Notes: generated from the sequence alone by a model not told the origin. A stretch of 32,000 nucleotides of DNA from Bacilli bacterium (GCA_017459425.1 JAFUCZ010000024.1:9672-41671); one strand, 5' to 3'. Shown: positions 5,148 to 26,472, numbered from the stretch's first letter. Translations and numbers: made by a program.

Positions 5148-5762
5148 TTATTGATTTTTAGCTAATTCATCCATAGAATATGTGTTATATCCTTCATATT
5201 GATAGCTAACATCAATACCTTTCATATACACTTCTCTATCATTTACTTTATCGGTCAATGCATTTTCTAGAAGTATTTTTATTTCAGTATCTTTAATAGG
5301 ACTTCGTTCCATAGCTAATAGGTATTCTTCTTTATTCACTTTACTCCAATCAACAACTTTACCAATTTCATTTTTTAATATCATATCAAGCCAAATTCTT
5401 GTACTTCTACCATTACCTTCTCTAAATGGATGAGCAACATTCATTTCTACATATTTCTTGATAATGTTATCAATATTATCTTGTGGCATTTTATCAATTT
5501 TATTTAATACTTCTTCTAAATACATAACCGGTACAAATCTAAAATTACCTTTTGATATATTAGTATATCTCATCTTACCTGCAAATTCATAAATATCTGA
5601 AAATAAATATTTGTGAATGGATGCAAGTCCCTCGTATGTTCCAACTTCAAAATTTTTAATTTCATTAGTATCAAATAAATCTAATGCTTTTAATTTTGTA
5701 ATTCTTTCTTCCTCTTTGGCAAGCTCTACTTCATTAGTTATTCCAAGTTTATTTTTCAGCAT
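5148..5762 (-). CDS. fic: Fic/DOC family protein (probable adenylyltransferase/AMPylase)
   Basis: Canonical Fic active-site motif HPFREGNGRSTR, matching HxFx(D/E)GNGRxxR. The 204-aa size is typical of single-domain Fic proteins. Confidence 0.85.
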   Translation of the reverse strand: MLKNKLGITNEVELAKEEERITKLKALDLFDTNEIKNFEVGTYEGLASIHKYLFSDIYEFAGKMRYTNISKGNFRFVPVMYLEEVLNKIDKMPQDNIDNIIKKYVEMNVAHPFREGNGRSTRIWLDMILKNEIGKVVDWSKVNKEEYLLAMERSPIKDTEIKILLENALTDKVNDREVYMKGIDVSYQYEGYNTYSMDELAKNQ

Positions 5763-7128: not shown

Positions 7129-7147
7129 ATACTTGTTTTCAAGTATT
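7128..7147. terminator. Bidirectional terminator hairpin between cotJC and the XRE gene
   Basis: aatacttg-tttt-caagtatt, followed by a T-run on the plus strand. It overlaps the 3' end of the minus-strand gene. Confidence 0.45.
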
Positions 7148-7342
7148 TTTTTTATAAAATATATCATCTGGTTTCATATCAAAAATGTTTGATATTTTTA
7201 CTGCCATATCGTAAAAGAGTCTTCTTTTTTTGTTTTCTATTTGACTATAATATGCTGGAGTAATGTTTAAAATATGCGCTACTTGAGCGCTTGTTAAATT
7301 GTTTTGTATTCTTATTTTCTTTAAGTTTTCTGTGTTATACAT
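7139..7342 (-). CDS. XRE-family helix-turn-helix transcriptional regulator (67 aa)
   Basis: IRIQNNLTSAQVAHILNITPAYYSQIENKKR is the classic Cro/C1-type HTH pattern. Confidence 0.75.
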   Translation of the reverse strand: MYNTENLKKIRIQNNLTSAQVAHILNITPAYYSQIENKKRRLFYDMAVKISNIFDMKPDDIFYKKNT

Positions 7343-7421: not shown

Positions 7422-7661
7422 ATGGGTGATACAATGGCTTATAGCAAACAAAATGATATTTATAATGTAATTGGTAAAAATATAAAAAAGTATAGAAAAC
7501 AAAAAGGAATATCACAAAAAGAACTTGCTGAAAAACTTTTATTATCTGATAATTTTATAGCTAAATTAGAATCTGTTACACGTCAAACGTTATCAATTGA
7601 TACTTTATATGAAATAAGTAAGGAATTAGATGTAGATATTTCAAAATTTTTTGATAAATAA
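7422..7661 (+). CDS. XRE-family helix-turn-helix transcriptional regulator (75-79 aa)
   Basis: IKKYRKQKGISQKELAEKLLLSDNFIAKLES is an HTH_3 pattern. The start is ambiguous between the ATG at 7422 and the ATG at 7434. Confidence 0.75.
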   Translation: MGDTMAYSKQNDIYNVIGKNIKKYRKQKGISQKELAEKLLLSDNFIAKLESVTRQTLSIDTLYEISKELDVDISKFFDK

Positions 7662-10416: not shown

Positions 10417-11031
10417 ATGAAAAAAATAATATTAAGTTTAATTATATTTTTATTTGTGTTTAACGTGAGTGCAGAAGAAAAGGTAAGTGTTACTCTTAAA
10501 AGTTGTGTTGATGGAGATACAGCTAATTTTATTATGAAAAAGAAAGAGATAAAAGTGCGTTTTTTAGCAATTGATGCCCCGGAAATTAAACATGGTAGTA
10601 AAAAAGCTGATCCATATGGTGAAGAAGCAAAGTTTTATACTTGTTCTGAGCTTAAAAAAGCTGATAATATTTATCTTGAATTTGATGATAATAGTGATAA
10701 ATTAGATAGGTATGATAGATATTTAGCCTGGGTTTTTGTAGATGATGATTTGCTTCAATATAAAATTGTTAAAAAAGGGCTTGCTAAGGTGGCGTATTTA
10801 TATGATGATTATAAATATACGGATGTTTTAAAAAAAGCTGAAAATAAGGCTAAAATTAGCACTAAAGGTATATGGAGTAATAATAAATTAGAATTTGATT
10901 TCGATTTTATAAAAGAAAATTATATATATATAATTATTGTAGTATTATTTGTTTTATTAATATGTTTAATTAGTAAGAAAGCTAGAAAACTTATTAAGAA
11001 AAAAATTTATAAAAAAATTAAAAAGTACTAA
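10417..11031 (+). CDS. Thermonuclease (staphylococcal nuclease family), membrane-anchored/secreted
   Basis: N-terminal signal peptide. VDGDTANF...VRFLAIDAPE...YGEEA...DRYDRYLAWVF matches the SNase catalytic core. There is a C-terminal TM helix plus a basic tail. Confidence 0.8.
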   Translation: MKKIILSLIIFLFVFNVSAEEKVSVTLKSCVDGDTANFIMKKKEIKVRFLAIDAPEIKHGSKKADPYGEEAKFYTCSELKKADNIYLEFDDNSDKLDRYDRYLAWVFVDDDLLQYKIVKKGLAKVAYLYDDYKYTDVLKKAENKAKISTKGIWSNNKLEFDFDFIKENYIYIIIVVLFVLLICLISKKARKLIKKKIYKKIKKY

Positions 11032-11182: not shown

Positions 11183-12247
11183 ATGTTAAAGCTTAGAAAA
11201 AATTTAAATTTAAAAGAAGTTTATGACTATCCGCTTGATCCTACATATGTTAAGAAATTACTTAAAACATGTGAATTAACTGAAAATGACAAACTATCAA
11301 TATTAGGAGATTCTATGTTTAATACTATGTTTTTAAATAAACATGGATTAAAATACTCAGCTAAACTTTTTTCTTATTTCTTTAGAATTAGATATGAAGC
11401 ACTACTAAAAAAATTAAAATTTTTTAAAAATAATGTAGGTAAAATTAGAAATGGTTCTAGAAACTCTAGATGTGATTTGGTAGCCCAAATTGATGATTCT
11501 ATAATTAATTTAGAAGTAAATAACAACGATTCTGTTTATGTAATGCAAAGAAATATTGATTATGCATTTAGATTATATTCAGAAAGCTCTGTAAAAGTTA
11601 AAGCGGGATATGATTTTTCACAAATAATTCAAATTAATTTAAACAATTTTGCTTTTAAAGATACTAATGAAACTTATGAAATATATACTATCAATAATGG
11701 ATCTAAAATACTTACTTATAAGTTAATTATTATCAATATTTATGTTCCAAACATAATCAAAAAATGGTATAATGAGGGTGTAGAAGCTTTAAGTGAAATG
11801 GAAAGATACATCCTTGGACTTGTAGAAGAAGATACAACTAAAGCTAGTACTTTAGGAAAGGATATTGATATTATGGATGAATTTATTGGTGAAGCACTAT
11901 CGAAAAGTAGAAATGAAAGGCTAAGAAGATCATATGATAAAGAACTAGCCCTTTTAGATCAAGGTGATAGAAACGGATTTAAAAGGGGTATGATGAAAGG
12001 AATGGATAGAGGATTTCAAGAAGGAATTGAAAAGGGAATTGAAAAAGGATTTGAACAAGGTATTGAACAAGGTATTGAACAAGGTATTGAACAAGGTATT
12101 GAACAAGGAATCAAGCAAGGAATTAACCAAAGTAAATTTGAAATAGCACAAAAAATGATTGATAATAATGATAATATTGAATATATTTCATTTATTACTA
12201 ATTTATCAATCGATGATATTAAAAAAATAAAATCTAAAGTTAATTAA
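11183..12247 (+). CDS. Rpn-family / PD-(D/E)xK nuclease family transposase-like protein
   Basis: RCDLVAQIDDSIINLEVNNN fits a D...E-x-(N/K) PD-(D/E)xK core. The C-terminal GxEQG repeat block is followed by IAQKMI...ISFITNLSIDDIKKI, the arrangement typical of the Rpn/YhgA-like family. This is recalled family knowledge and was not searched. Confidence 0.6.
   Translation: MLKLRKNLNLKEVYDYPLDPTYVKKLLKTCELTENDKLSILGDSMFNTMFLNKHGLKYSAKLFSYFFRIRYEALLKKLKFFKNNVGKIRNGSRNSRCDLVAQIDDSIINLEVNNNDSVYVMQRNIDYAFRLYSESSVKVKAGYDFSQIIQINLNNFAFKDTNETYEIYTINNGSKILTYKLIIINIYVPNIIKKWYNEGVEALSEMERYILGLVEEDTTKASTLGKDIDIMDEFIGEALSKSRNERLRRSYDKELALLDQGDRNGFKRGMMKGMDRGFQEGIEKGIEKGFEQGIEQGIEQGIEQGIEQGIKQGINQSKFEIAQKMIDNNDNIEYISFITNLSIDDIKKIKSKVN
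12023..12130 (+). repeat. In-frame 12-nt tandem repeat (nine units, four perfect) encoding (G-I/F-E/K/N-Q/K)n
   Basis: Perfect ggtattgaacaa occurs four times at 12059-12106. It is flanked by degenerate units ggaattgaaaag, ggaattgaaaaa, ggatttgaacaa, ggaatcaagcaa and ggaattaaccaa. Confidence 0.9.
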
Positions 12248-13359: not shown

Positions 13360-13425
13360 ATTATCACTTCTCTTGTATTTAATTATAGCATATTTAAGTA
13401 ATTCTTTAAAGATTTTAGTAAAGTA

Positions 13426-13516
13426 TTTTATATTTTCATTTAGTTTTTTGATTATTTATTACTAATACCTTTTTTTATTTAATATAAAAATACCTCATTT
13501 AGAGGTACTATAACAT
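13426..13516 (-). pseudogene. Deletion relic of a second copy of the 14195-16870 helicase gene (its 3' end fused to its 5' end and leader)
   Basis: 13426-13455 matches 14202-14231 (the helicase 3' end) with 1 mismatch. 13451-13516 matches 16835-16900 (the first codons, start region and upstream hairpin) with about 6 differences. The two segments join at a shared attatt. The start codon is ATA in the relic. Confidence 0.6.
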
Positions 13517-13535
13517 GCTTTTTATTGTATAATCA

Positions 13536-13715
13536 TTAAAATAATTCCGGGTGACTACCAGTAGCAACAAGCACTAATATTAATTGATTATTTATATATT
13601 GATAAACTAATAGCCAATCTGGTTCTATATGACTTTCGAAACTTTTTTTATAATGCCTACTGTCAGTAAGTATATGATTTTTATATTTTTCACCTAATTC
13701 TACTCCATTTACTGA
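13536..13715 (-). pseudogene. N-terminally truncated YafQ/RelE-family toxin remnant
   Basis: My translation is SVNGVELGEKYKNHILTDSRHYKKSFESHIEPDWLLVYQYINNQLILVLVATGSHPELF*. It matches the C-terminal two-thirds of YafQ-type mRNA interferases (H.L.....H I.PDWLL.Y....L.L.RTGSH..LF). It has no start codon, and an in-frame TAG lies at 13716-13718. Confidence 0.65.
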
Positions 13716-13724
13716 CTAATAACT

Positions 13725-13955
13725 TTAAGCTTGTGAACATACTTGCCTTGCTTCTTCATCTTTTTTTAATTCTTTACTAGGTTTAGATTCTTCTATTTTA
13801 AATGGAATACTAGGTGTTTTAACACACTTAGTCAAGAACATATTAATTACTGTACTCATGTTTAAACCTAAATTTTTAAATAACATATGACTTTCTTGTT
13901 TAAGCGTTGCATCAACTCTGACATTTAAATTAGTAGTATTGTGAATACTTTCCAT
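13725..13955 (-). CDS. RelB/DinJ-family type II antitoxin
   Basis: LNVRVDATLKQESHMLFKNLGLNMSTVINMFLTKCVKTPSIPFKI fits the DinJ ribbon-helix-helix pattern (vR.D...K......lG...s.ai.mFl......iPF). It lies immediately upstream of the toxin remnant. Confidence 0.7.
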   Translation of the reverse strand: MESIHNTTNLNVRVDATLKQESHMLFKNLGLNMSTVINMFLTKCVKTPSIPFKIEESKPSKELKKDEEARQVCSQA

Positions 13956-14194: not shown

Positions 14195-16870
14195 TTATTT
14201 TTTTATAATTTCATTTAGTTTTTTGATTATTATTTCTTTTTCTCTTGAACCATTTGTTTTAAATCTAAGTAGTGGAATATCACACTTTTTTAAAATATTA
14301 TTTTTTATTTGGTCTCTTATTATTTGTTTCTTTTTATTATGAAAAAAATATCCATCTACTTCTATTGCAAGTACAGGCTTTTTATCAAATTTATTAAATA
14401 TTAGAAAATCTATATGTGAATTATGATTAATAAATTCAATTTCTCTTTCATTTAAAATAGTTTTATCTTTAACTATTTTTCTTAATGGATATACTTTATC
14501 TAAAACATCATATGTACTATATTCATCCATTTGTAGTATTTCTTTTATAGTATTATACATAATAGTTTCTGAATCAAATTTAGAAAAAATAGTATGTGCT
14601 TTTAAATATTGTTTTTTAGTATCTTCATTTACTTTGTATAGTAAATCAAATATTGAGTTTATTTTACTTTCTACTTCTTCAAATTTATTATATTTAATAT
14701 AACTTATTAAATTAGAAATATTAGAATTATTACTTGATTTATATTCATCTGGTGTAACTAAAAATAGTTTATTAATAGCTCTAGATACTGCTACATTAAT
14801 AGAATTAGGATTATCTAAAAATTTTGTTATATTGTTTGCTACTGTAGAAAAAATAATAGTATCTTTTTCTCTTCCTTGAAATCCATGAACTGTATCTATA
14901 GATACATTTGGGCAATTAATTTCACCTATTAGATAATTTTTTTGGGCTTTATATGGAGTTATAATTCCTACCCGATCTTTATTTATATCTATTTTTTCAT
15001 TTGGTATTAGTTCATCTATTATAATTTCTGCTTGTCTTAAATTATACCAACTATTATCTCTTTTTCTAGCGTGATTACCTTTTACTGATTTATATTGTTT
15101 AATTGGCTCATTATTATTACTTTCTGATAGTATTATTAATTCATTATTATAGAATTTTTTATTACAAAAATTTATTATTTTAGGATGACATCTATAATGT
15201 TCTCTTAAAATGACTATATTATTAACTGTTTTTTTAGTTAAATCAAGTAAACTATTTTTAGTGTAATTAAATTTTTCTTCTATATCATATTTATTAAATA
15301 TTTCATTAAAATCTATATTTTTATCAACTATGTTAGGTAGTTGCTTAGAATCTCCTACTATTATTACGTTTTTAGCCATGCTAAGTGCAGCAAATGAAGA
15401 TACTAGATCTGCTTGAGAAGATTCATCTATAATCATGTAATCAAACATAAAAGATTTATTAACACAATTTATTAATGAATATGTAGTACTAAGTATTACA
15501 GGGTAATCTTTTATTAATTCTTGTGTATTATAAATTGTTTTTTTATCATATATTTTTTTATTATTATAATTTTTATATACATAATCTTTAAATAATTTCA
15601 TAGAAATATCTGTATATGTTTTAAATAATTTTTCATAATTTAAATTCTTTATATAATCTTTTTTTTCTTGTACTTGTGTTTCTAATTCTTTTATTCTTTT
15701 TTCGTAATATGAATATTCTAAATAATTTAAAATATCTACTATTTTATTACTAGTATCAATTTTATATTTTATTTTTGATTTAATTTGTATTAATTTACTA
15801 AAATATTCTTTTTTGTTTTTTTGTTTATTTAAAAACATTAAAACTTCATGTAATTTTTTTGAATCATAATCAGGTAAATTAATTACTTTTATATTAGATA
15901 TATCAATACTTTTTTTAAAATAATTATATTCTGTTTTTAATTCATCTAATTCTTGATTTGCTGCAGCTATTTCATTTTTTATATTTAAATATGAATCTAT
16001 ATCACTATTCATTATATTTAAATTATTTTTTATTTTATTTATTTCTTCGTCATTTAATTTCCAATTATCAGGATATAATTCATTAGATTGATTATTAATA
16101 AAATCTTTAATATTACTAGATTTACCTAATTTCGCACATATAGAAGATAAAGATTGTTTTTTTAATTTTTCATATACGTTATCAGTGGCACTATTATTAT
16201 TAGATATAACAGCTACACTATAATTTGAAATAATACAATTAGATATTATATTTAAAATTGTTTGTGTTTTACCTGTACCAGGTTGTCCTTCTATTGCACT
16301 AACATAATTATTAAGTGCATTATTTAATGCTTTTTTTTGACTTAAATTAAAACTAAATGGAAATATATTAGTATCTATTTTAGTGCCTTTATCTTTAATA
16401 CCATTAACATAATACTTAATGACTGAATCTTCATTTATAAATTTTAATTTATCATATATCTTACTTAATACACTATTATCTTCATTATTTGATATATCTT
16501 TAATAGTTAAATAACTTGATATTTCATTTAAATAATTATAAACATTTCTTACATTTATATTAGATAGCAAATTACTTTTAATTGTAACTTCAGAATTATT
16601 ATATAATTTAGTAGTATTATTACTAAAAAATACTTTTATATAATTATCAAACTTTAATATTTTTTCTACATTAATTAAAGTATTATATGAAGTTGATATT
16701 ATAGAATCTTTTATGATTATAGGATATTCTTTTATTATTAAATTAGATTTATTATATGTATATATTTTATCACTATAATTAACACTTACTAAATTATCAT
16801 TAATATCAACTACATTTTTAGTTATATCTTTATCATTATTTATTACTAATATCTTTTCTTCATTTAACAT
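14195..16870 (-). CDS. Superfamily 1 (Upf1/DNA2-like, AAA_11/AAA_12-type) helicase with a C-terminal DUF2726-like PD-(D/E)xK nuclease-fold domain
   Basis: Walker A GQPGTGKTQT, motif II MIIDESSQ, then VGDSKQLPN, LREHYRCHPKIINF, TVHGFQGREKD and NVAVSRA (motif VI). The C-terminal HIDFLIFNKFDKKPVLAIEVDGYFFH...RDQIKNNILKKCDIPLLRF resembles the DUF2726/Vsr-like endonuclease fold. It is on the same strand as the DGR RT and 54 nt downstream of it. Confidence 0.85.
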   Translation of the reverse strand: MLNEEKILVINNDKDITKNVVDINDNLVSVNYSDKIYTYNKSNLIIKEYPIIIKDSIISTSYNTLINVEKILKFDNYIKVFFSNNTTKLYNNSEVTIKSNLLSNINVRNVYNYLNEISSYLTIKDISNNEDNSVLSKIYDKLKFINEDSVIKYYVNGIKDKGTKIDTNIFPFSFNLSQKKALNNALNNYVSAIEGQPGTGKTQTILNIISNCIISNYSVAVISNNNSATDNVYEKLKKQSLSSICAKLGKSSNIKDFINNQSNELYPDNWKLNDEEINKIKNNLNIMNSDIDSYLNIKNEIAAANQELDELKTEYNYFKKSIDISNIKVINLPDYDSKKLHEVLMFLNKQKNKKEYFSKLIQIKSKIKYKIDTSNKIVDILNYLEYSYYEKRIKELETQVQEKKDYIKNLNYEKLFKTYTDISMKLFKDYVYKNYNNKKIYDKKTIYNTQELIKDYPVILSTTYSLINCVNKSFMFDYMIIDESSQADLVSSFAALSMAKNVIIVGDSKQLPNIVDKNIDFNEIFNKYDIEEKFNYTKNSLLDLTKKTVNNIVILREHYRCHPKIINFCNKKFYNNELIILSESNNNEPIKQYKSVKGNHARKRDNSWYNLRQAEIIIDELIPNEKIDINKDRVGIITPYKAQKNYLIGEINCPNVSIDTVHGFQGREKDTIIFSTVANNITKFLDNPNSINVAVSRAINKLFLVTPDEYKSSNNSNISNLISYIKYNKFEEVESKINSIFDLLYKVNEDTKKQYLKAHTIFSKFDSETIMYNTIKEILQMDEYSTYDVLDKVYPLRKIVKDKTILNEREIEFINHNSHIDFLIFNKFDKKPVLAIEVDGYFFHNKKKQIIRDQIKNNILKKCDIPLLRFKTNGSREKEIIIKKLNEIIKK

Positions 16871-16874
16871 AAAA

Positions 16875-16893
16875 ATACCTCATTCAGAGGTAT
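16875..16893 (-). promoter_or_regulatory. Hairpin overlapping the helicase Shine-Dalgarno sequence (terminator-like or SD-sequestering)
   Basis: The minus strand reads ATACCTC-TGAAT-GAGGTAT followed by TTTTT and ATG. The GAGGT RBS is the 3' arm of the stem. The same hairpin is conserved in the relic at 13488-13507. Confidence 0.35.
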
Positions 16894-16924
16894 TATATCA
16901 TCATTTTTATTATATTTAAAGATA

Positions 16925-17992
16925 TTATAAATAACTATCTATAATTTTTTCTATTTTTTTCTTATTACATCTATATGAATAATAATAATTCATCATAGAT
17001 GAAAAATATGTTTCAAATTTTAATTTTTCATTTTTGTATAAATATATTTTCTTTTTTACATTTTTCTTCATATTCTTAACAGAACTTCTTTTAACAATCA
17101 TTATTGTTTTTTTATTTTGTATAAAAAATTTATAACCTAGAAATGTAAAACCATATTTAGAACTCGTAATAAATGTTTTATTTATACTTATATCCAATTT
17201 ATATTCATTATTTAGTTTATTAATTATTATTTCTTTGCATTTTTTTAAATATAATAAATCATCACTAAAAATTAAAAAATCATCCATATACCTTACATAG
17301 TGTTTTAATTTTAATGTATGAATTATATAGTGATCTAGTCTGGATAAATAATATATTGACAAGCATTGACTACTTAAATTACCAATTGGTAAGCCTTTGC
17401 CGTATTCATATAAAGGTACTTTTAAATTTTTATTATTTTTAAGGATTTTTTTTATATTTGAATTTATATAATCATAATTAGTACTATCAATTATTTTACA
17501 TACAAAATTATATTCACAATCACTTAAATCTGTTTTTAACATTGCCTTTAATATGTCATGATCTATCCTATAAAAATACTTACTTATATCTATTTTTAAA
17601 ACATAAAATATTTTATTTTTTCTTTTATAAAACTCTATATATTTTTTTACTAAATTTATGGCATAATCGGTACCTTTGCCTATACGTGTAGCAACATTTC
17701 TATCATCTAATTTTTTTTCTAATTTAGGTATTAGATAATTAGTAGTATAATAATGATTTATTATTTTGTCGTTAATACTTAATGACATAATAAGCCTAGG
17801 TTTTGGTTCATATATTAAAAAAATATTGTATTTATGAATAAGTGGCTCTATACCATTTAATACATCAACAATATATTTTAAATGCTCTGATTTATGCATT
17901 TCCAAATTAATTAATTTATTTTTATTTTTTACTGTCTTTTTTAATGTTTGTTCATAAAATTCAAGTACATCACGTATTGTTATTTTTTTCAT
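16925..17992 (-). CDS. Diversity-generating retroelement reverse transcriptase
   Basis: RT motifs are present: the motif 4 region LPIGNLSSQCLSIYYL (the (I/L)GxxxSQ signature that distinguishes DGR RTs), motif 5 YVRYMDDFLIFS (YxDD), and FTFLGYKF. The 355-aa size is typical of DGR RTs. It overlaps the avd-like gene by 23 nt, and the TR and VRs lie nearby. Confidence 0.9.
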   Translation of the reverse strand: MKKITIRDVLEFYEQTLKKTVKNKNKLINLEMHKSEHLKYIVDVLNGIEPLIHKYNIFLIYEPKPRLIMSLSINDKIINHYYTTNYLIPKLEKKLDDRNVATRIGKGTDYAINLVKKYIEFYKRKNKIFYVLKIDISKYFYRIDHDILKAMLKTDLSDCEYNFVCKIIDSTNYDYINSNIKKILKNNKNLKVPLYEYGKGLPIGNLSSQCLSIYYLSRLDHYIIHTLKLKHYVRYMDDFLIFSDDLLYLKKCKEIIINKLNNEYKLDISINKTFITSSKYGFTFLGYKFFIQNKKTIMIVKRSSVKNMKKNVKKKIYLYKNEKLKFETYFSSMMNYYYSYRCNKKKIEKIIDSYL

Positions 17993-18335
17993 ATACTATC
18001 CAACCCCTAACTTTTTTATTTAAATCTAATAAAAGTGCGGTTTTTTCATGAAAAATAGATTCAGTAATATATCCCTTTTTATATGATTCTTCAAGTAATA
18101 AATCAATCATACTAATTTTTGATAAAATTTTACTTTGATTTAAAATACGAATATCTTTAAATTTATTAAGTGGTATATAATTAGATTCATAAATAAGTTC
18201 TATTATCTCATAGGTTAATGTTTTTATTTTATCTTTAAGTATTATTTCCCTATTTGGAAATCTACATAAAATAGTATCTATTTCAAACAGGAATGTTTTA
18301 GCAATTACAATTATTTTAAACTTATTTTCTTTCAT
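17970..18335 (-). CDS. avd: Avd-like accessory variability determinant (four-helix-bundle protein)
   Basis: 121 aa and predicted all-helical. FPNREIILKDKIKTLTYEIIELIYESN and IDLLLEESYKKGYITESIFHEKTALLLDLNKKVRGWI fit the four-helix-bundle / 23S rRNA IVS protein family pattern. It is translationally coupled to the RT. Confidence 0.75.
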   Translation of the reverse strand: MKENKFKIIVIAKTFLFEIDTILCRFPNREIILKDKIKTLTYEIIELIYESNYIPLNKFKDIRILNQSKILSKISMIDLLLEESYKKGYITESIFHEKTALLLDLNKKVRGWIVYEKNNNT

Positions 18336-18672
18336 TTAAAAAATTATCTATTACATCAATTAAATCATTTAATTGATTAAAATTTGCTTTCATTATTTTT
18401 TCTTGTATTTGATTAATTTTTAAATCAAGAATTAATTTGTTTTTTGATTCTATTAAATAATTACTGTAATTATCGTCTTCAAAATGTTTTATTTCATCAT
18501 TTAATTTATAATCAATATGTAATTCGTCTAATTTTGATTTAACCTTGTCAATACTACTTAGTGGAAAACCAACTCTACTATCTTTTAGTTTATAATTAAA
18601 TAAATTATGTAATATTGTTGCGTCATCATCAAATACTGAATAAAAATTACCTGCTTTTCTAAAAACTATCAT
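18322..18672 (-). CDS. Small MutS domain-I-like DGR accessory protein (MSL-type)
   Basis: MIVFRKAGNFYSVFDDDATILHNLFNYKLKDSRVGFPLSSIDKVKSKLDELHIDYKL aligns by eye with the MutS mismatch-binding N-terminus (LLFYRMGDFYELFYDDA...L...LT.R...PMAGIP......YL.KL...G..V). It overlaps avd by 14 nt. Confidence 0.55.
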   Translation of the reverse strand: MIVFRKAGNFYSVFDDDATILHNLFNYKLKDSRVGFPLSSIDKVKSKLDELHIDYKLNDEIKHFEDDNYSNYLIESKNKLILDLKINQIQEKIMKANFNQLNDLIDVIDNFLNERK

Positions 18673-18896
18673 TAATAAACCTCACTTCATAAATATTAGT
18701 AAGGAGTAAATAACTCCTTACCATTACAACATACTACATTTTTACAAGATTATAGAATCGGTACGTATACCTATCGTCTTGTACTATCTTTAGGGTTACC
18801 CCTAGGACATGTGCTGTCTCCTACAATTATCATATTATTTGCGAGAAAATAATACCCGAATAAATATTTGACTACATTGTAAACTGAAATTGTAGC
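18673..18896 (-). ncRNA. Non-coding spacer 3' of the TR, probably part of the DGR RNA (Sp-like region)
   Basis: There is no ORF, and it is locally richer in G+C than its surroundings. Minus-strand hairpins are TAGGG-GTAA-CCCTA (18791-18804, GNRA-type loop), GGTA-TACG-TACC (18760-18771, UNCG-type loop) and gtaaggagt-tatt-tactccttac (18699-18721). Confidence 0.4.
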
Positions 18897-19010
18897 AGTC
18901 TACAGGGCGGACAGAACCGGCATTTAACGCATTGTTGTTATTGACGTTTCCTGTAGAGTTCACATTGAACACATTATTGGAATTTGAAGAATTCGCACGA
19001 GGCGAAAGGG
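18897..19010 (-). repeat. DGR template repeat (TR), 114 nt
   Basis: It is homologous to 19520-19633 and 21317-21430. All mismatches are at plus-strand T, which is A on the minus (coding/template) strand. In the target reading frame it is loaded with AAY Asn codons (...ANSSNSNNVFNVNSTGNVNNNNALNAGSVRPV). The 60-aa ORF at 18835-19017 in the track is this element, not a gene. Confidence 0.92.
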
Positions 19011-19040
19011 AAAACAAAAGCCAAAACTCAGAAAACTATC

Positions 19041-19355
19041 TTACCCTAACACACCTGCCCTAATTCTATCTAATATATCTATAACTATAAACTTATATAC
19101 GTACTCAGTATATCTATTTATATTGTTTTCATATGTTTTATCTATATTTAAATTATCTACTATAATATAATTAATACTTAATTTTTGAAATTTTTTTAAT
19201 ACTACAGTAATATCATCATTATATTTTTTAATATAATTTAAAATAATTTTATCTATACCAAAACATTTATACCCAAATTTATTTTTACTAGTTTTAAATA
19301 GCAATACATAATTAGGATATATTTTTTTTAAAAACCAATATCTATTATTGTACAT
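19041..19355 (-). CDS. Hypothetical small protein between the DGR targets and the TR, possibly a second MutS-domain-I-like accessory
   Basis: 104 aa. YWFLKKIYPNYVLLFKTSKNKFGYKCFGIDKIILNYI loosely parallels the MutS N-terminus (YL.LK...P..LLFYR.GDFYE.F..DA......L), and SINYIIVDNL parallels the VAI.EQ region. The similarity is weak and seen by eye only. Confidence 0.4.
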   Translation of the reverse strand: MYNNRYWFLKKIYPNYVLLFKTSKNKFGYKCFGIDKIILNYIKKYNDDITVVLKKFQKLSINYIIVDNLNIDKTYENNINRYTEYVYKFIVIDILDRIRAGVLG

Positions 19356-19386
19356 ATATAATTTATTAGTAGAATCCTTTTCTACC

Positions 19387-19414
19387 CGTCCAGTCTTGAA
19401 TACAAGACCGGACG
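19387..19414 (-). promoter_or_regulatory. 12-bp hairpin downstream of DGR target 2
   Basis: The minus strand reads cgtccggtcttg-tatt-caagactggacg. All 12 positions pair on the minus strand, one of them as G-U. The plus-strand version has an A-C mismatch, so the structure is strand-specific. A second 6-bp hairpin (gtagaa/ttctac) follows at 19369-19386. No T-run follows either hairpin. Confidence 0.4.
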
Positions 19415-19442
19415 ATTCCTTTCATTTTATCTTTTAATTCAA

Positions 19443-20840
19443 TTATTCTGTGTAATTTAGAACAAATGGTTTTGATTGTGTTCCATCACCAGAGGTGATT
19501 GTAACACCTGATTTTAAGTAGACTACAGGGCGGACAGAACCGGCATCCAACGCATGGTCGCCAGTGACGTAGCCTGTAGAGCGCACAATGAACACAATAT
19601 AGGAATAAGAAGAAGTCGCACGAGGCGAAAGGGTCCATGTCCACATACTTGTATTTAATAACCAATCATTATTCTTACAGTCTGTATATGTATTTTGCCA
19701 ATTTGGTATACTTGAATCTGATACGTATCCTACAGTATATGATAAACATGCATCTCTATCATGTGTACTTCCACCACTTGTCGCATATGCATAATCACTT
19801 GGATATATTAGTCCTACTTTACCTGTCCAACGCGTTGTTCTATTTACTGTATCACTACAATGTGTTGCATTTGAACATTGCTTACCTGTACTACTTGATC
19901 GCTCCCAACTATATAGTAGTGACGCTGTTATTCTTCCATCCCAGATATTTGCACTTGGTGTATCTAATGAGCCTAAGTACCATGTTGCATTATCTATCAT
20001 ATTTTTACTTGCTGTATCGCTCAATCCTGTATTTGTAAAATCACAGTTTGCTGTATTATAATTTCCATATGTATAACATTTGCCACTTTCTGCATTCCAA
20101 TACAAACTATTATTTACTTCGATTGTATCATAATTTGACGCGCTGTTATCTCCACAGTTAACTATTGAATTTGCTGAATCTAAAGTTGAACCTGCAATAC
20201 ATCTTAAATCTTCGTTCTCTTCATATCCTGGATTTAATAATTTCATTAAATCTGCTCCATCATAATCAGTTCCATCAGTTAGTGTTGATTCACCCCATTG
20301 GTTTACACCATATCCTCTATTAACATCTACCGCTGATGTATCAAATGAATAATTTCCAATTGGGCTTTGAACAAGTTTTAGTCTTCCATCAAATACTCCT
20401 ATTATTCTCCATACTTGATCATTAAATCTTACATAGTTATCTGGATTACTTCCTATAAACCTTAATTCATTTTCGTGATCTGTTGTTGATATTCCCTCAC
20501 CCTCTGTATTTAATGCTTTTATATATGATTCTGGTGTTTTCGGATTTGTACAACTATATTCACCATTTGTTCCATTAATTCTTACATATCCGCTAGGACA
20601 ACCTACATTAACTTCACAGAATGTTGCTTTTGTATATAATTCATCTAATGCAGTTTGTACATCTTCTACATCATTTCCACTCGAATCTTTAAAGCCGGAA
20701 GAGCTATTATCATATCCAACGTTATCACTTTGGTAAAGAATCGTAGCACCATAGACAGTTGTACTTGCTACAATTATTCCAATTATTATTCCATAAAATA
20801 ATTTTTTGTTATTATTAATATTATTTATTATTTTCTTCAT
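19443..20840 (-). CDS. DGR target protein 2: membrane-anchored/secreted protein with a C-terminal variable-region domain
   Basis: N-terminal hydrophobic anchor (LFYGIIIGIIVASTTVYG). VR1 encodes ...WTLSPRATSSYSYIVFIVRSTGYVTGDHALDAGSVRPVVYL about 25 residues from the C-terminus. The W.L(R)SP...G.VRP(A/V) module resembles C-type-lectin-fold/DUF6273-like ligand-binding domains used by DGR targets. An AGGAGGAAATAATT-ATG RBS follows 12 nt after the stop of target 1. Confidence 0.85.
   Translation of the reverse strand: MKKIINNINNNKKLFYGIIIGIIVASTTVYGATILYQSDNVGYDNSSSGFKDSSGNDVEDVQTALDELYTKATFCEVNVGCPSGYVRINGTNGEYSCTNPKTPESYIKALNTEGEGISTTDHENELRFIGSNPDNYVRFNDQVWRIIGVFDGRLKLVQSPIGNYSFDTSAVDVNRGYGVNQWGESTLTDGTDYDGADLMKLLNPGYEENEDLRCIAGSTLDSANSIVNCGDNSASNYDTIEVNNSLYWNAESGKCYTYGNYNTANCDFTNTGLSDTASKNMIDNATWYLGSLDTPSANIWDGRITASLLYSWERSSSTGKQCSNATHCSDTVNRTTRWTGKVGLIYPSDYAYATSGGSTHDRDACLSYTVGYVSDSSIPNWQNTYTDCKNNDWLLNTSMWTWTLSPRATSSYSYIVFIVRSTGYVTGDHALDAGSVRPVVYLKSGVTITSGDGTQSKPFVLNYTE
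19457..20534 (-). repeat. Copy A of the ~1.08-kb duplicated VR-bearing module
   Basis: Collinear with 21254-22334 at an offset of 1797-1800 nt, with one 3-nt indel. The encoded proteins are roughly 95 percent identical outside the VR by eye. Confidence 0.9.
19520..19633 (-). repeat. DGR variable repeat VR1
   Basis: I count 17 differences from the TR across 18901-19010, plus one at 18899. All are at TR adenines on the coding strand. The flanking invariant blocks are ccctttcgcctcgtgcg (5') and ccggttctgtccgccctgtag (3'). Confidence 0.92.
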
Positions 20841-20852
20841 AATTATTTCCTC

Positions 20853-23800
20853 CTAATTTAGCATCTCGTACAACTTGTCTATCATACATTGTACATTACT
20901 ACATCCAAGTGTACTATTAATATGTTCTATATTTTCTGCCATTACTCTTGTCCATTTAGCATATAATACTCCACTGTTATCTGTAAAAATAGTAGCAGAC
21001 ACTTGTGAAGACAATTTACCACTAGAATCAATTACTTTGGTTCCAGTTCCATTCTTGCCTGTATAATATCCACCAAATGCATATCCTTTTTTTGTTGGTA
21101 TTGTTATTCCATTACTACTTGTTGTAATTTGTGTAGTAGCTTCACTATTTAAATAATATCCTGTATTATATTTTTCATATATACTTGTTGTTCCTGTTGT
21201 AGTAGCATTTCTATTATCTAATTTTACTGAATATGTATCTGATGTTGGATCAGTTAAAACAAATGGTTTTGATTGTGTTCCATCACCAGAGGTGATTGTA
21301 ACACCTGATTTTAAGTAGACTACAGGGCGGACAGAACCGGCAAAGAACGCATCGGTGCTAATGACGTATCCTGTAGAGTGCACATAGAACACACTATTGG
21401 AATCTGAAGAAATCGCACGAGGCGAAAGGGTCCATGTCCACACGCCTGTATTTAATAACCAATCATTATTCTTACAGTCTGTATATGTATTTTGCCAATT
21501 TGGTATACTTGAATCTGATACATATCCTACAGTATATGATAAACATGCATCTCTATCATGTGTACTTCCTCCACTTGTTGCATATGCATAATCACTTGGA
21601 TATATTAGTCCTACTTTTCCTGTCCAACGCGTTGTTCTATTTACTGTATCACTACAATGTGCATTATTTTGTGTACATTGCTTACCTGTACTACTTGATC
21701 GCTCCCAACTATATAGTAGTGACGCTGTTACTCTTCCATCCCAGATATTTGCACTTGGTGTATCTAATGAGCCTAAGTACCATGTTGCATTATCTATCAT
21801 ATTTTTACTTGCTGTATCGCTCAATCCTGTATTTGTAAAATCACAGTTTGCTGTATTATAGTTTCCATATGTATAACATTTGCCACTTCCTGCATTCCAA
21901 TACAAACTATTATTTACTGAAACTGTATCATAATTTGACGCACTGTTATCTCCGCAGTTAACTATTGAATTTGTACTATCTAAAGTTGAACCTGCAATAC
22001 ATCTTAAATCTTGATTACTCTCATATCCTGGATTTAATAATTTCATTAAATCTGCTCCATCATAATCAGTTCCATCAGTTAGTGTTGATTCACCCCATTG
22101 GTTTACACCATACCCTTTATTTACATCTACCGCTGATGTATCAAATGAGTAACTACCTATTGGACTTTGAACAAGTTTTAATCTTCCATCAAATACTCCT
22201 ATTATTCTCCATATTTGATTATTAAATCTTACATAGTTATCTGGATTACTTCCTATAAATCTTAATTCATTTTCGTGATCTGTTGTTGATATTCCCTCAC
22301 CCTCTGTATTTAATATTTTAATTACAGATTCAGGATCGTTACCAACATATGTCCAATTTGCAGTATAACTTCTATTACCTGTTGAACCTGTAGGTATAGT
22401 TACATTTTTGCTTGGAGTATTTCCATTAGACCCAGTCCATCCATCAAATAAATAACCTGTTTTTTTTGGATTATTTAATGTGATTGCACTGCTTTCTTTT
22501 GTGTAACTTGTTGGATTTGTAGCACTTCCACCATTTAATGTGTATTCAATTGTATATGATATTGGTTCACATACTCCATATAACGCTACATCCGTTATTG
22601 GTGTTATTGTTTCGCCACTTGTATGTTGAATAGTTGTACCATTTTCATTTGCTGTCCATCCACAAGTATATCCTGTTTTTTCTATTGTTGGAAGTGTTAT
22701 ATTTCCACTACCACTAAATCTAGCAAATAAAGTAATATCTTCATCATGTATCCAATTTGATTCTTCATCTGTATATTCGTTTATACTTGGAGTTAATACT
22801 GGTTTATTTGTATTATCTAGCATTAGATCTCCACCATTTTGTAATGTATACCAACCATTAAATGAATATGAAGTAGTTAAGTTTTCATTACTACTTACTG
22901 TAGCGCCATTTGATTTTCTTGAATTTGATAATTCAAATCCACTTACTGTGTATTCTTTTTGTGGTACTACTATTTCTTCTGGATTAATATCTGCTGCATC
23001 GTATGTTACTTCAACACTAGCAGTTGGGTTATTTGTTGCTCCATTTTTATTTAAAGTAATAGTATAGGTATTTGCTATCCAATGTGCTGTTATAGTTTCT
23101 GATTTTTTAGCTAAAGTTTCAGGAGTAACCTTTACATCATTTGACGTATACCAGCCATCAAATGTGTATCCAGTTTTACTAACTGTAGGTAATTCACCAT
23201 AAGAAGTATTATATTCTATTCTTTTTGTAATTACTTCTTCTCCATTATTAGGATCAAATGTTATAGTGTAAATATCTGTTGTGTATATTGCATATAGTGT
23301 ATAAATTGGATATTCATTTAAATCTACTGTTAATTTATCTCCTTTACGATATTTAATTCTTGTACCATTTTGTTCATCTGTCCAACCACTAAATGTATAT
23401 CCTTCTTTTACTGGTTCTTCTAGTACGTTATTAACTAAGTTTAAAGTTAAATCTTCACCCTCATATTTTATTTGATCTGTTACACTGCTTCCGCCATTTT
23501 CTTGATAAGTAATATAGTATACTTTTCTAAAATCAAATACATTTGTTACATTTATTGTAGATGTACTTGGATTTGTTGTAGTATAAGTTACATATAAATC
23601 TAGTGTAGATTTTTTTTCAATTACATCTTTGAAATTAAATATAGTACCATTTGCATATTTTATAGTTGTAATTAATCCATTATCGTTTGAAGTTGTAGTC
23701 ATGTTATATATAGTTTGATCGAAATCACCATTGTTTGCAATAGTTACTTTATATGTTATAGATGAATTACTATTAGGTAAAACAAACCCACTAGTTATTT

Positions 23801-24229: not shown

Positions 24230-25228
24230 TTAATCCATTTCTTTTCTAGTTACTTTATATTCATAATTTTGAGTATCCATAATTACAAATTTAGATTCAT
24301 TTTCATTTACTTTTACATAAATTATAGGTTTTTCTAAATTATTTCTTACATCCAATAATTCTTTAAAACTATTAATAGATACAACAGGTGCATTACTATC
24401 AATAAATGAATTATTAGATTCTGTAATATATGAATCATTTTCTCTTAAAAGTTTTTTAATATATCTTTCATATTTACTTTCTTTACTAAGTCTACTTTTA
24501 ATTTTAAGTGCTAGTATTACTAGAGAAACAAAACCTAAAGCAGCAAGCATAATAGATATACCAAACATTACTTTATTAAGTGGTGATTCACTTGTTCTTA
24601 AAGAGTATGGTTCATTACTAGAAATATCAGAGCTTTTAGAAATATTAATCATTTGTCTAGAAAGAGGTATTTCTACAGTCATTTTCTTACTACCTACTAT
24701 ATCGTTTTCTTTACTCTCATACATTAAATCATAATCGATAACTAAATTACAATTAGCGCTTATTCCATAATCACTTTTAAATTTATTTGCTAAATTATTA
24801 TATTTAGTATAATCAATTTTTATTTGATCAGATACATCTATATTTTCACTAGTATTAGCATCTTGTTTTAATATATCATTTTCAGAATAAATTACTTTAT
24901 CGTTATTTTCTGTATCAACTATTTTTATATCAGCAACAATTTTTTTATTTATATCAAAAGTATCTTTAATGTCATAAGTTGCCTTATAATTGAAATTTAA
25001 ATCAATATAATCTACTATACTAGAAATATATTGCATTCCTTCATCTAAATAATCCCTATTGTAATAAGTTTTATCATTTAAATATACTTTGTATTTAACC
25101 CCACCATTTTCTTTAAAATCAACCACTGTTGATATTTGTTGCTTTGATTGCATAAAGAAATAAAAACTTAATATTCCTAATATTACTGTCAAAACAACCA
25201 TTGCCAACTCGCTTTTACTCTTTTCCAT
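24230..25228 (-). CDS. Bitopic membrane protein associated with the SipW-type peptidase (possibly DUF5305-like)
   Basis: 332 aa with an N-terminal TM helix (LAMVVLTVILGILSFYFFM), an extracytoplasmic segment of about 200 aa, a second TM helix (VMFGISIMLAALGFVSLVILAL) and a cytoplasmic tail. It lies 12 nt downstream of the signal peptidase gene. The family assignment is recollection only. Confidence 0.5.
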   Translation of the reverse strand: MEKSKSELAMVVLTVILGILSFYFFMQSKQQISTVVDFKENGGVKYKVYLNDKTYYNRDYLDEGMQYISSIVDYIDLNFNYKATYDIKDTFDINKKIVADIKIVDTENNDKVIYSENDILKQDANTSENIDVSDQIKIDYTKYNNLANKFKSDYGISANCNLVIDYDLMYESKENDIVGSKKMTVEIPLSRQMINISKSSDISSNEPYSLRTSESPLNKVMFGISIMLAALGFVSLVILALKIKSRLSKESKYERYIKKLLRENDSYITESNNSFIDSNAPVVSINSFKELLDVRNNLEKPIIYVKVNENESKFVIMDTQNYEYKVTRKEMD

Positions 25229-25240
25229 TTTTATCCTCCT

Positions 25241-26365: not shown

Positions 26366-26400
26366 AACTCACCTTCTCACTCTTATCTACTCTAAAAATA

Positions 26401-26429
26401 ATTATATTAAATTATTTTTATTTTGTCAA
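26401..26429 (-). promoter_or_regulatory. Consensus sigma-A promoter upstream of the signal peptidase gene
   Basis: The minus strand reads TTGACA, a 17-nt spacer, then TATAAT. Confidence 0.55.
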
Positions 26430-26452
26430 ATACAATAAATTGATTAAAAAAA

Positions 26453-26472
26453 ACATAAGTAAATACTTATGT
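26453..26472 (-). terminator. Rho-independent terminator after the 26472-27092 gene
   Basis: The minus strand reads acataagt-attt-acttatgt followed by tttttttt. Confidence 0.6.

Follow-up and report, generated by a model that had tools for sequence, protein, structure and literature searches.

The window analysed here is a 32,000-nucleotide stretch of DNA from a Bacilli bacterium (GCA_017459425.1 JAFUCZ010000024.1:9672-41671). Its minus strand carries a gene for an 891-aa helicase-nuclease, with a DGR and its reverse transcriptase (RT) directly upstream. The relic of a second helicase copy and the genes of a toxin-antitoxin pair lie on the downstream side. The features are as follows, with the basis of each call in brackets.

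13420 to 13530, minus strand: relic of a second helicase cassette, internally deleted (repeat families D4, D6, D8, D12 and D15)
13539 to 13715, minus strand: truncated RelE/StbE (YafQ-like) toxin remnant (TIGR02385, E=1.3e-9)
13725 to 13955, minus strand: intact RelB/DinJ antitoxin gene, a neighbour and not part of the helicase (Pfam RelB, E=3.8e-10)
14195 to 16870, minus strand: helicase-nuclease ORF, intact, 891 aa, ATG start (ORF list and translation)
14213 to 14572, minus strand: C-terminal DUF2726 (Vsr/DUF559-like PD-(D/E)xK) nuclease domain, aa 767-886 (Pfam)
14753 to 16351, minus strand: SF1B Upf1-like helicase core, aa 174-706, two RecA-like domains with motifs I-VI (Pfam, PDB profiles, Foldseek)
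15566 to 16051, minus strand: long, stalk-like helical insertion in RecA1, aa 274-435 (DSSP on the AlphaFold2 model)
16571 to 16870, minus strand: N-terminal domain of tandem small beta-barrels, about aa 1-100 (AlphaFold2 model)
16874 to 16894, minus strand: hairpin with a T-run, terminator-like for RT-derived transcripts (terminator scan and folding)
16892 to 16920, minus strand: promoter-like site of the helicase gene, TTTAAA, 17 nt, TGaTATAAT with an extended -10 (consensus scan, 10/12 plus TG)
16917 to 16925, no strand: junction of two independent homology blocks, the end of the DGR cassette and the start of the helicase cassette (locus comparisons)
16925 to 21430, minus strand: DGR, a separate module (repeats, adenine-specific mismatches, domain matches)
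16925 to 17992, minus strand: RT (RVT_1 match)
17970 to 18335, minus strand: Avd (Avd match)
18322 to 18672, minus strand: MSL (MutS_I match)
18894 to 19010, minus strand: TR (repeat)
19041 to 19355, minus strand: orf104 (DGR component)
19517 to 19633, minus strand: VR2 (repeat)
21314 to 21430, minus strand: VR1 (repeat)

The first-pass annotation of this DNA had described a complete Upf1/DNA2-like SF1 motif set followed by a C-terminal PD-(D/E)xK-like module. Both descriptions were borne out by the translation, which contains GQPGTGKTQ, IIDESSQ, VGDSKQLPN, REHYRCHPKI, HGFQGREKD and VAVSRA, as well as HIDFLIF...LAIEVDGYFFH...RDQ...DIPLLRF. A Pfam scan at curated gathering thresholds recovered the proposed fusion of an SF1 helicase and DUF2726, with AAA_11 at residues 174-515 (85.9 bits, cut-off 27), AAA_12 at residues 539-706 (101.3 bits, cut-off 27) and DUF2726 (PF10881) at residues 767-886 (57.4 bits, cut-off 24.7, E=1.6e-15); a weak additional match to MTES_1575 fell in the C-terminal domain. 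Helicase motifs I, II, III, IV, V and VI are intact. Their residues show no variation in 62 homologues, and neither do H819, D821, E837, D839, H844, Q849, R852 and K856 of the nuclease. Every family-invariant residue is found in the window protein. DUF2726 has been placed in the PD-(D/E)xK superfamily (PMC3424549). Sequence comparison of the C-terminal domain alone with the PDB gave only a marginal match to the Vsr-like homing endonuclease 3r3p (E=0.19), which we set aside as proof of the fold.

The AlphaFold2 model of the protein had a pLDDT of 88.9 and a pTM of 0.82. The helicase core matched IGHMBP2, Sen1, DNA2 and UPF1 in PDB profile searches (E 5e-33 to 1e-23), and SETX, IGHMBP2, UPF1 and DNA2 in Foldseek searches (E 1e-19 to 1e-22). 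The insertion in RecA1, which is found throughout the family, was modelled as helices at residues 274-321, 337-348, 359-369, 377-409 and 412-435. The N-terminal domain was modelled as 11 strands with pLDDT >90. A Foldseek search with this domain gave nothing significant, only SH3/Tudor/KOW-like matches at E >= 0.026, and this term is used here to describe the modelled fold, not to assign it. The domain is kept in Bacillota-type homologues and shortened in Bacteroidota ones, and possibly acts as a sensor or in nucleic-acid binding.

More than 1700 proteins belong to this family at E <= 1e-5. In this large, taxonomically scattered family of proteins of about 850-940 aa, the Upf1-like SF1B helicase carries a long helical insertion and is joined to a nuclease of the Vsr/DUF2726 type (PD-(D/E)xK) at the C-terminus; the tandem beta-barrels at the N-terminus are found in most members. 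Of 5426 complete E. coli genomes, 648 (12%) carry a homologue (WP_236479692-type), within IS-rich islands. When metagenome contigs were scanned with the window protein alone, just two loci came back; this contributed locus L085 but did not amount to a survey.

The DGR adjoining the helicase-nuclease gene is genuine. It possesses a TR, two VRs, MSL, Avd and RT, and all mismatches within the TR-VR repeat are at TR adenines. It thus already has Avd and MSL (architecture D). We could not establish orf104 as a second MutS-like protein: it showed no BLASTP similarity to MSL, and one homologue gave a single faint MutS_I match. Four assemblies of one strain have an identical helicase-DGR arrangement, and in two of them VR2 and its flank are identical to VR1. 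This could be due to gene conversion or to assembly collapse, and since both are possible the identity says little about ongoing diversification.

The first-pass annotation had favoured the idea that the helicase-nuclease is an accessory of this DGR, co-transcribed with the RT, which unwinds or nicks the VR target or aids cDNA integration. The position of the gene on the same strand just past the RT stop is consistent with such a role, as are the diversification of at least one VR and the constancy of the arrangement across the four assemblies. The route by which cDNA replaces the VR is also still unresolved (PMC12875486). Against the role, the four core BPP-1 components are enough for retrohoming in E. 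coli (PMC12875486). The criterion for a DGR accessory gene is conservation in the cassettes of phylogenetically related DGRs, and the recognised classes are Avd, HRDC, MSL and CH1 only (Wu et al. 2018, PMC5758913); a helicase-nuclease falls outside them. The window gene is like these accessories in lying on the same strand, inside a DGR cassette or at its edge. However, recognised accessories co-vary with RT phylogeny and are kept among related DGRs, whereas the window helicase is absent from the relatives readable past the RT.

This absence was seen in a comparison of six related DGR loci (L087-L092), with RTs 67-71% identical to that of the window, which share the order target, ORF of about 100 aa, TR, MSL, Avd, RT. 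Their DNA homology with the window runs from the target gene through the RT stop and no further, ending at 16925/16926. The contig of L088 stops about 580 nt beyond the RT, and hence five of the six loci are informative past this point. In these five the helicase is missing and unrelated genes are found, comprising a 153-aa ORF with an N6_N4 methyltransferase, a 225-aa ORF with an adenine glycosylase, and SpoVAC/SpoVAD. In this DGR lineage the RT stop codon can be taken as the edge of the cassette.

A second comparison was centred on the helicase, and covered 80 species-representative loci (32-60% identity), L085 (64%) and nine close contexts (56-64%). No DGR-type RT, Avd or MSL was found within up to 10 kb of about 88 helicase-homologue loci. 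The window RT, Avd, MSL and orf104 used as tblastn queries had no matches at these loci, and an RT profile HMM returned positive controls only, even at E <= 1. The helicase family is not associated with DGRs at the loci examined. At one locus, L003, the gene immediately upstream of a 60%-identical helicase, at a contig end, encodes a protein distantly homologous to the DGR target. This arrangement is a point against independence from the DGR; the target-like gene is just 32% identical to the window target, and the 11.7 kb of this locus contain no TR-like repeat and no RT. The co-occurrence that the first-pass annotation had suggested as a check was therefore 0/5 for related DGR loci with a helicase and 0/~88 for helicase loci with a DGR-type RT.

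The spacer between the two genes bears on the same question. The RT ORF (16925..17992) and the helicase ORF are separated by 54 nt (16871..16924) on the same strand, the distance given by the earlier annotation. That annotation had also described a hairpin whose 3' arm carries the helicase Shine-Dalgarno sequence as the sole element of the spacer. Sequence and folding confirmed the hairpin, but a promoter-like TTTAAA-17-TATAAT with an upstream TG is present there as well. The hairpin, AATACCTC-TGAAT-GAGGTATT (16894..16874), folds at -9.7 kcal/mol (z = -4.5), and 0 of 200 shuffles folded as well. Its 3' arm has GAGG, 7-8 nt ahead of the helicase ATG, and its 5' arm shares nucleotides with the -10 box of the promoter-like site. 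It was among the three sites found by the terminator scan (0.5 expected). It is duplicated in the relic copy at 13489-13509, and is absent upstream of the homologues in L001, L005 and L085.

Promoter and terminator calls in this genome of about 20% G+C are consensus matches, and promoter-like hexamers were no rarer than in shuffles (59 found, 70 expected). The argument that the helicase gene has its own promoter therefore rests on conservation and not on the scan. The helicase promoter is conserved upstream of close homologues: TGnTATAAT is kept about 25-30 nt upstream of the start codon in L001, L004, L005 and L085, where the genes further upstream are unrelated. The relic copy retains the -10 element as TGTTATAGT.

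Transcripts from this promoter should initiate within the hairpin loop, lacking the 5' arm and with the ribosome-binding site exposed, whereas RT read-through transcripts would carry the entire hairpin, terminator-like and with the GAGG ribosome-binding site buried. As predicted from the sequence, the hairpin probably insulates the helicase module from the RT module. Together, the gene's own extended -10 and the terminator-like hairpin suggest expression outside the DGR transcription unit. Some read-through from the RT is likely because the hairpin stem is short and A+U-rich, and the RT and helicase may be co-transcribed in this strain. A terminator hairpin that overlaps a promoter would be a small example of a cassette insulating itself from upstream transcription.

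Homology on the helicase side begins at 16917 in L001, 16900 in L005 and 16876 in L085, and runs to about 14200, while the internal duplicate of the helicase cassette begins at 16915. Since both the helicase-side homology and the second copy begin at about 16917, the module junction lies inside the 54-nt spacer; the DGR cassette ends and the helicase cassette starts there.

The second copy reported by the first-pass annotation was confirmed at 13420-13530 by repeats and sequence. It duplicates the sequence from 16915 downstream together with the final 40 nt of the helicase ORF, and consists of the leader, the hairpin and about the first 13 codons (with ATG changed to ATA) fused to the last 12-13 codons at an AATAAT microhomology. 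The helicase gene has thus been duplicated without the DGR. This duplication, the break in homology within the spacer, the conserved promoter with a hairpin masking the ribosome-binding site in read-through RNA, and the two comparisons of loci make the DGR accessory role very improbable, and we regard it as close to refuted already. Secondary co-option in this lineage alone, in which RT read-through would supply a 5'->3' motor and nickase to aid TR-RNA removal or cDNA entry at the VR, appears just as improbable, as every comparative test argues against it. If it were true, this strain would have a natural DGR with a dedicated helicase-nuclease. We consider it likely that the 891-aa protein forms a module of its own, autonomous and encoded by a single gene, which adjoins the DGR and does not belong to it. 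The alternative raised by the first-pass annotation, an unrelated defence-type gene that landed beside the DGR, with a mobile or rearranged history, is favoured by this evidence.

The decayed toxin-antitoxin module noted by the same annotation is also real. Its RelE/StbE toxin retains only the C-terminal 51 of 88 profile positions (38-88; TIGR02385), and its RelB/DinJ antitoxin is intact (TIGR02384, 62.9 bits, cut-off 45.65). The tandem of helicase, RelB, toxin relic and deleted helicase copy, with a spacing of 3384-3385 nt, raised the question of whether helicase and RelB/RelE are cargo or maintenance genes of a small mobile cassette, serving the replication, transfer or addiction of the element and not host defence. 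Recombinases or integrases do occur near several homologues, a few of which are on plasmids and one on a phage-like contig. However, the window contains no flanking recombinase, transposase or terminal repeats, RelB was not found beside other homologues, the conserved unit is promoter, leader and ORF only, and relatives were present on merely 18 of 72,556 plasmids and in 1 of 50,697 phage records. We hold the cargo explanation to be highly unlikely. The helicase-nuclease gene travels on its own, within about 2.7 kb (~14195-16917) that comprise the ORF with a short leader and the extended -10 promoter.

The neighbourhoods of the helicase-nuclease family are variable and often defence-rich. Around individual close homologues we found Abi_2, Fic, type I restriction-modification and a serine recombinase; Thoeris ThsA/ThsB, recombinases and a DncV-like gene; AbiEi-like, GmrSD-HNH and type I restriction-modification genes; Abi_2, type III restriction-modification and a giant NTPase; and UvrD with Fic. 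Restriction-modification, Abi, Thoeris or GmrSD genes were present in five of the nine close contexts (raw count). No conserved partner gene was detected, the largest cluster of neighbour proteins occurring in 6 of 86 loci. The 149 nearest neighbours matched 154 Pfam families, none of them in more than four. Ordinary housekeeping genes, such as those for GNAT acetyltransferases and ABC transporters, were also among these neighbours.

The window protein resembles Mokosh type II and Hhe in layout and is a member of neither. Mokosh type II (MkoC) is a single-gene anti-phage system with a C-terminal PLD-family nuclease (Millman et al. 2022, bioRxiv 10.1101/2022.05.11.491447). MkoC was the best PADLOC match (E=3.6e-52), aligning query residues 268-743 with model positions 425-981 of 1136. 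Both are single polypeptides in which a Upf1-like (COG1112) SF1 helicase precedes a C-terminal nuclease, and both are encoded by stand-alone genes in variable islands. However, the window nuclease is a DUF2726/Vsr-like PD-(D/E)xK and that of MkoC a PLD; the Pfam scan of the window protein gave no PLD match and placed DUF2726 at the C-terminus. In the MkoC model, 425 positions at the N-terminus and 155 at the C-terminus (982-1136) are unmatched, and the N-terminal tandem beta-barrel domain is specific to the window family.

Hhe is reportedly a DUF4011 helicase with a Vsr-type endonuclease (Gao et al. 2020). It shares with the window protein an SF1 Upf1-like helicase and a restriction-fold nuclease of the Vsr/DUF559 kind in a single-gene system, but the Pfam scan found no DUF4011 domain, the window protein is half the size (891 versus about 1800 aa), and the NCBIfam model NF042953 gave 75.2 bits against a cut-off of 2000, matching helicase motifs only (residues 474-643). 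No PADLOC model for Nhi (nuclease-helicase immunity) matched the window protein at E <= 0.01. The eukaryotic and archaeal Dna2 and Upf1/Sen1/IGHMBP2 proteins have the same SF1B core fold and motifs, and Dna2 likewise couples a PD-(D/E)xK nuclease to an SF1B motor. The Dna2 nuclease is N-terminal, of RecB type and has an Fe-S cluster, whereas the window nuclease is C-terminal and of Vsr/DUF2726 type, with a tandem beta-barrel at the N-terminus. Sequence identity of the window protein to this group is 14-19%, and it lacks the CH domain and other accessory domains of Upf1.

These similarities bear on whether the protein is a host housekeeping helicase-nuclease, Dna2-like or Upf1-like, acting in DNA repair, replication or RNA quality control with no role in conflict. 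Upf1, Sen1, IGHMBP2 and DNA2 are its top structural and profile matches, part of its neighbours are housekeeping genes, and UvrD-type helicases lie near the homologues in L093 and L095. A housekeeping role is nevertheless unlikely, given the patchy accessory distribution typified by the E. coli islands, the variable synteny and partners, the quite different loci occupied by close homologues in related Bacilli, the decayed second copy in the window, and a nuclease family typical of restriction-like and mobile contexts (PMC3424549, PMC3710099). Judged from architecture and context, the helicase-nuclease is most likely an enzyme of nucleic-acid surveillance or defence. Its motor would engage single-stranded DNA or RNA, or else an intermediate formed as an invading element replicates or recombines, and would translocate 5'->3' with ATP, bringing the fused nuclease to cut. 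Type II Mokosh, Hhe and Dna2 follow the same logic; the 5'->3' polarity we infer from family membership only.

The literature on DUF2726, Mokosh, Hhe and Nhi contained no experimental report on this family that we could find. The label of defence rests on architecture and context, and two observations speak against it: just about half of the close contexts (raw count) contain recognisable defence genes, and housekeeping genes are among the nearest neighbours. On balance, we think it slightly more probable than not that the family represents a single-gene defence system not described before.

Lying next to a DGR RT, even at 54 nt on the same strand, is not evidence for a role in mutagenic retrohoming, and a tempting false lead is thereby removed. 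What remains is a large, well-conserved family that joins a Upf1-like motor, a Vsr-type nuclease and a tandem beta-barrel domain. Screens for defence systems could reasonably include it, and the homologue in E. coli eases such work.

The helicase-nuclease is encoded by an uninterrupted ORF of 891 codons with an ATG start (14195..16870, minus strand). All of the motifs quoted in the first-pass annotation were found in its translation, and the SF1 helicase and DUF2726 domains proposed there gave Pfam matches well above curated cut-offs: AAA_11 at residues 174-515, AAA_12 at 539-706 and DUF2726 at 767-886. DUF2726 belongs to the PD-(D/E)xK superfamily, grouped with Vsr and DUF559 (PMC3424549), and has been described as a restriction-endonuclease-fold DNase of conflict systems (PMC3710099). 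The helicase motif residues and the nuclease residues H819, D821, E837, D839, H844, Q849, R852 and K856 show no variation among 62 homologues, and the window protein retains them all. An AlphaFold2 model from a 62-homologue input was confident (pLDDT 88.9, pTM 0.82) and resolved five regions:

Region 1, residues ~7-100: eleven beta-strands, pLDDT >90 when modelled alone
Region 2: helical linker after the N-terminal beta-strand domain
Region 3: RecA1, split by a long helical insertion (274-435)
Region 4: RecA2, after RecA1
Region 5, residues 787-890: alpha/beta domain

Foldseek matched the whole model to SETX/Sen1, IGHMBP2, UPF1 and DNA2 (E ~1e-19 to 1e-22), and a sequence profile search returned the identical set. 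Residues ~7-100 gave only non-significant SH3/Tudor/KOW-like Foldseek matches (E >= 0.026).

The top PADLOC match was to the helicase part of MkoC (E=3.6e-52), covering only model positions 425-981 of 1136. MkoC is the type II Mokosh protein; Millman et al. define that type by an Upf1-like helicase that carries a PLD nuclease at its C-terminus, and membership was rejected because the window protein has no PLD domain. The NCBIfam Hhe, ProA and PLuB models matched helicase motifs only, far below cut-offs; Hhe membership was also rejected, as the DUF4011 domain is absent, and Nhi gave no match. The protein appears similar in working logic to the motor-nuclease fusions Mokosh II, Hhe and Dna2, but is a member of none.

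The element beside the helicase in this very A+T-rich window (G+C 0.17-0.35) is a genuine DGR, with every TR/VR mismatch inside the repeat located at a TR adenine:

16925..17992, minus strand: RT, an RVT_1 match and the ORF preceding the helicase
18894-19010: TR, 117 nt, matching two VRs
19517-19633 and 21314-21430: VRs, one at the 3' end of each tandem target gene

Two small ORFs lie between TR and RT: MSL (116 aa, MutS-domain-I-like), which scored 20.3 bits, short of the 20.6-bit cut-off, with homologues at 21.0 and 22.6 bits, and an Avd-like ORF (121 aa) with a weak match to NCBIfam Avd. With its MSL, this DGR corresponds to 'architecture D' as defined by Wu et al. 2018 (PMC5758913), who recognise no DGR accessory classes other than Avd, HRDC, MSL and CH1.

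The first-pass annotation had put forward the helicase-nuclease as a candidate DGR accessory factor or, alternatively, an unrelated defence-type gene. The protein family is very large, with 1742 matches at E <= 1e-5 among the candidates scored. Listed full-length members are ~850-940 aa and ~40% identical, are named in databases only as 'AAA domain-containing' or 'DUF2726 domain-containing' protein, and come from Clostridia, Bacilli, Bacteroidota, Campylobacterota, Spirochaetota and Deltaproteobacteria. We examined 80 species-representative genome loci with flanks of up to 10 kb, the best metagenome relative (L085, 64% identity) and nine close contexts (56-64% identity). The window RT, Avd, MSL and orf104 (a small DGR ORF) had zero tblastn matches in any flank of these loci, and an RT profile HMM built from 120 RT homologues recovered only positive controls from six-frame translations of all loci (1.7 Mb), even at E <= 1. 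The co-occurrence with DGR RT, Avd or MSL expected of a DGR factor was thus not seen near helicase homologues. Neighbours of the close homologues included:

L001: Abi_2, Fic, type I restriction-modification, serine recombinase
L004: Thoeris ThsA/ThsB, recombinases, DncV-like nucleotidyltransferase
L085: AbiEi-like gene, GmrSD-HNH, type I restriction-modification
L093: Abi_2, type III restriction-modification, giant NTPase
L095: UvrD, Fic
L003 and L094: unremarkable genes

The gene is autonomous: no conserved partner was found, the largest neighbour-protein cluster occurring in 6 of 86 loci, and the 149 nearest neighbours were spread over 154 different Pfam families, each matched by at most four of them. 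In E. coli, a 34%-identical homologue ('AAA domain-containing protein'), present in 648 of 5426 complete genomes (12%), offers a convenient experimental handle. At L098 and L102 it adjoins a PAPS-reductase/ParB-N pair; the surrounding islands are rich in IS elements and pseudogenes, contain no RT and lie near hemolysin or two-partner-secretion genes.

At L003, a gene at 1-801 (plus strand), where the contig ends, encodes a product 32-38% identical to the window DGR target protein, VR-equivalent region included. It sits 108 nt upstream of a 60%-identical helicase homologue (910-3711), and neither a TR-like repeat nor an RT was found in the 11.7 kb examined. This adjacency may be coincidence or a remnant.

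Reciprocally, the nearest RT relatives with usable contigs (P0126, P0129, P0130 and P0134; 67-71% identity) provided six loci in at least three genomic settings. All six share a module of target (~455-505 aa), ~100-aa ORF, TR, MSL (113-118 aa), Avd (124 aa) and RT (354-358 aa). Five could be read further downstream, where they carry a 153-aa ORF plus an N6_N4 methyltransferase gene, a 225-aa ORF plus an adenine glycosylase gene, or SpoVAC/SpoVAD, all unrelated to the helicase; the contig of the sixth, L088, stops ~580 nt past RT. Neither gene content nor tblastn (zero matches) revealed the helicase in the six loci as far as they extend, and no helicase follows RT in the five readable past it, which argues against the DGR link from the RT side as well.

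The boundary between the two elements involves the following features:

16871..16924: spacer of 54 nt between the RT and helicase ORFs
16894..16874: hairpin AATACCTC-TGAAT-GAGGTATT in the spacer, -9.7 kcal/mol, z = -4.5 against shuffles
16920..16892: promoter-like site TTTAAA-17-TGATATAAT, from a consensus scan
13420-13530: relic of a second helicase cassette, comprising leader, hairpin, approximately the first 13 codons (ATG to ATA) and then the last 12-13 codons

The spacer and hairpin described in the first-pass annotation were both confirmed. Related DGR loci are homologous to the window at the DNA level from the target gene onwards, and this homology breaks off at the RT stop codon (16925/16926). 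Homology of helicase loci starts at 16917 (L001), 16900 (L005) and 16876 (L085) and ends at 14197-14204, and the relic starts at the position equivalent to 16915. Three independent lines of sequence comparison thus agree that the helicase cassette begins at ~16917, with the DGR ending at 16925.

In the cassette leader of the close homologues L001, L004, L005 and L085, where upstream genes are unrelated, TGnTATAAT lies ~25-30 nt before the start codon; it reads TGTTATAGT in the relic, and its window counterpart is the promoter-like site at 16920..16892. In the window, the -10 hexamer shares bases with the first three of the hairpin 5' arm, and therefore transcription initiating 6-8 nt further on would begin within the hairpin loop. 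A transcript from this promoter would lack the 5' arm and leave GAGG free; RNA arriving from RT would form the full hairpin followed by a T-run, resembling a terminator and burying the Shine-Dalgarno. A scan found 3 terminator-like sites in 6.2 kb versus 0.5 expected. We infer from the sequence that the hairpin separates the helicase from the DGR transcript, acting as an insulator and not as a coupling element; leakage is likely, as the stem is short and A+U-rich. The hairpin is present only in the window copy and the relic, and absent from L001, L005 and L085.

The second-copy relic and decayed toxin-antitoxin module reported earlier were both recovered. Their order is leader and helicase, 240 nt, RelB, truncated RelE/StbE toxin, leader and internally deleted helicase, and a glycosyltransferase-4 gene; the cassette-relic repeat spacing is 3384-3385 nt and the relic halves are fused at an AATAAT microhomology. 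This arrangement indicates that an earlier duplication or recombination left the toxin-antitoxin module flanked by two helicase copies, after which a microhomology-mediated deletion of ~2.6 kb occurred and the toxin decayed. Neither an integrase or transposase gene nor terminal repeats were found beside the cassette in the window, which is otherwise ordinary chromosome of a spore-forming Bacilli MAG (SpoIID, MreB, CotJB/CotJC, BipA). Several genes less than 10 kb from the helicase hint mildly that the window itself is a variable or conflict-related neighbourhood:

5148-5762, minus strand: Fic/DOC
7139-7342, minus strand, and 7422-7661, plus strand: divergent pair of small HTH_3 regulators
10417-11031, plus strand: secreted staphylococcal-type nuclease

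An Rpn-type PDDEXK_2 nuclease gene (11183-12247, plus strand) carries a C-terminal GIEQ/GIEK repeat tract (repeat ~12085-12108), 24 nt shorter in one other same-strain assembly (346 vs 354 aa). Rpn-like PDDEXK_2 genes also lie just 5' of DGR targets in L090-L092.

Several observations concern the DGR itself. Between target gene and TR, orf104 (19041-19355, minus strand) represents a 94-104-aa ORF that all six related loci retain at 55-61% identity (e.g. L087 5659-5949, L089 5680-5964, L090 5650-5964), a pattern as would be expected of a lineage-specific accessory gene. It had no Pfam family and no BLASTP similarity to MSL; one homologue showed a faint MutS_I match (E=0.13). A strong hairpin with an 11-bp stem (18697-18723, minus strand) between TR and the MSL start may be part of the DGR RNA, or an internal terminator or processing signal. 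The tandem target genes (19457-20171, 21254-21971) have common 300-nt blocks, 93-97% identical, suggesting recent duplication and continuing exchange. Four same-strain assemblies are near-identical over 14.7 kb, with zero differences in helicase, RT, Avd, MSL and TR; between-sample differences are also concentrated in the target genes (20061-20220 and 21522-21731). Within the window, 17 TR-adenine positions distinguish VR2 from VR1, and VR2 with its 5' flank (19517-19653) equals VR1 in two of the four assemblies (L099 and L101 compared), which could reflect paralogue gene conversion, assembly collapse or DGR activity. The region upstream of the targets (24230-27837, minus strand) encodes a DUF5305 protein, two unknown proteins of ~210 aa and a membrane protein that ends in an S26/S24 signal-peptidase domain. 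Related loci (L088 and L089, 1394-4168) likewise carry small unknown ORFs and an S26/S24 peptidase gene ahead of the Flg_new/target genes, a set that may provide dedicated secretion or processing for diversified surface proteins.

The original observation of a helicase-nuclease behind a DGR RT stands, but its attractive interpretation as a DGR factor does not: the protein is almost certainly not a DGR component. Most likely it would act as a stand-alone surveillance enzyme, and we lean slightly towards a defence or anti-mobile-element function. Recognition of a foreign nucleic-acid intermediate, or licensing of loading onto it, would fall to an accessory domain formed by the N-terminal beta-barrels, the helical stalk or both. 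Fuelled by ATP, the SF1B motor would translocate, presumably 5'->3', and cleavage would be the task of the Vsr-type nuclease. In sum, a widespread but uncharacterised helicase-nuclease, encoded by a single gene, adjoins the DGR by chance.
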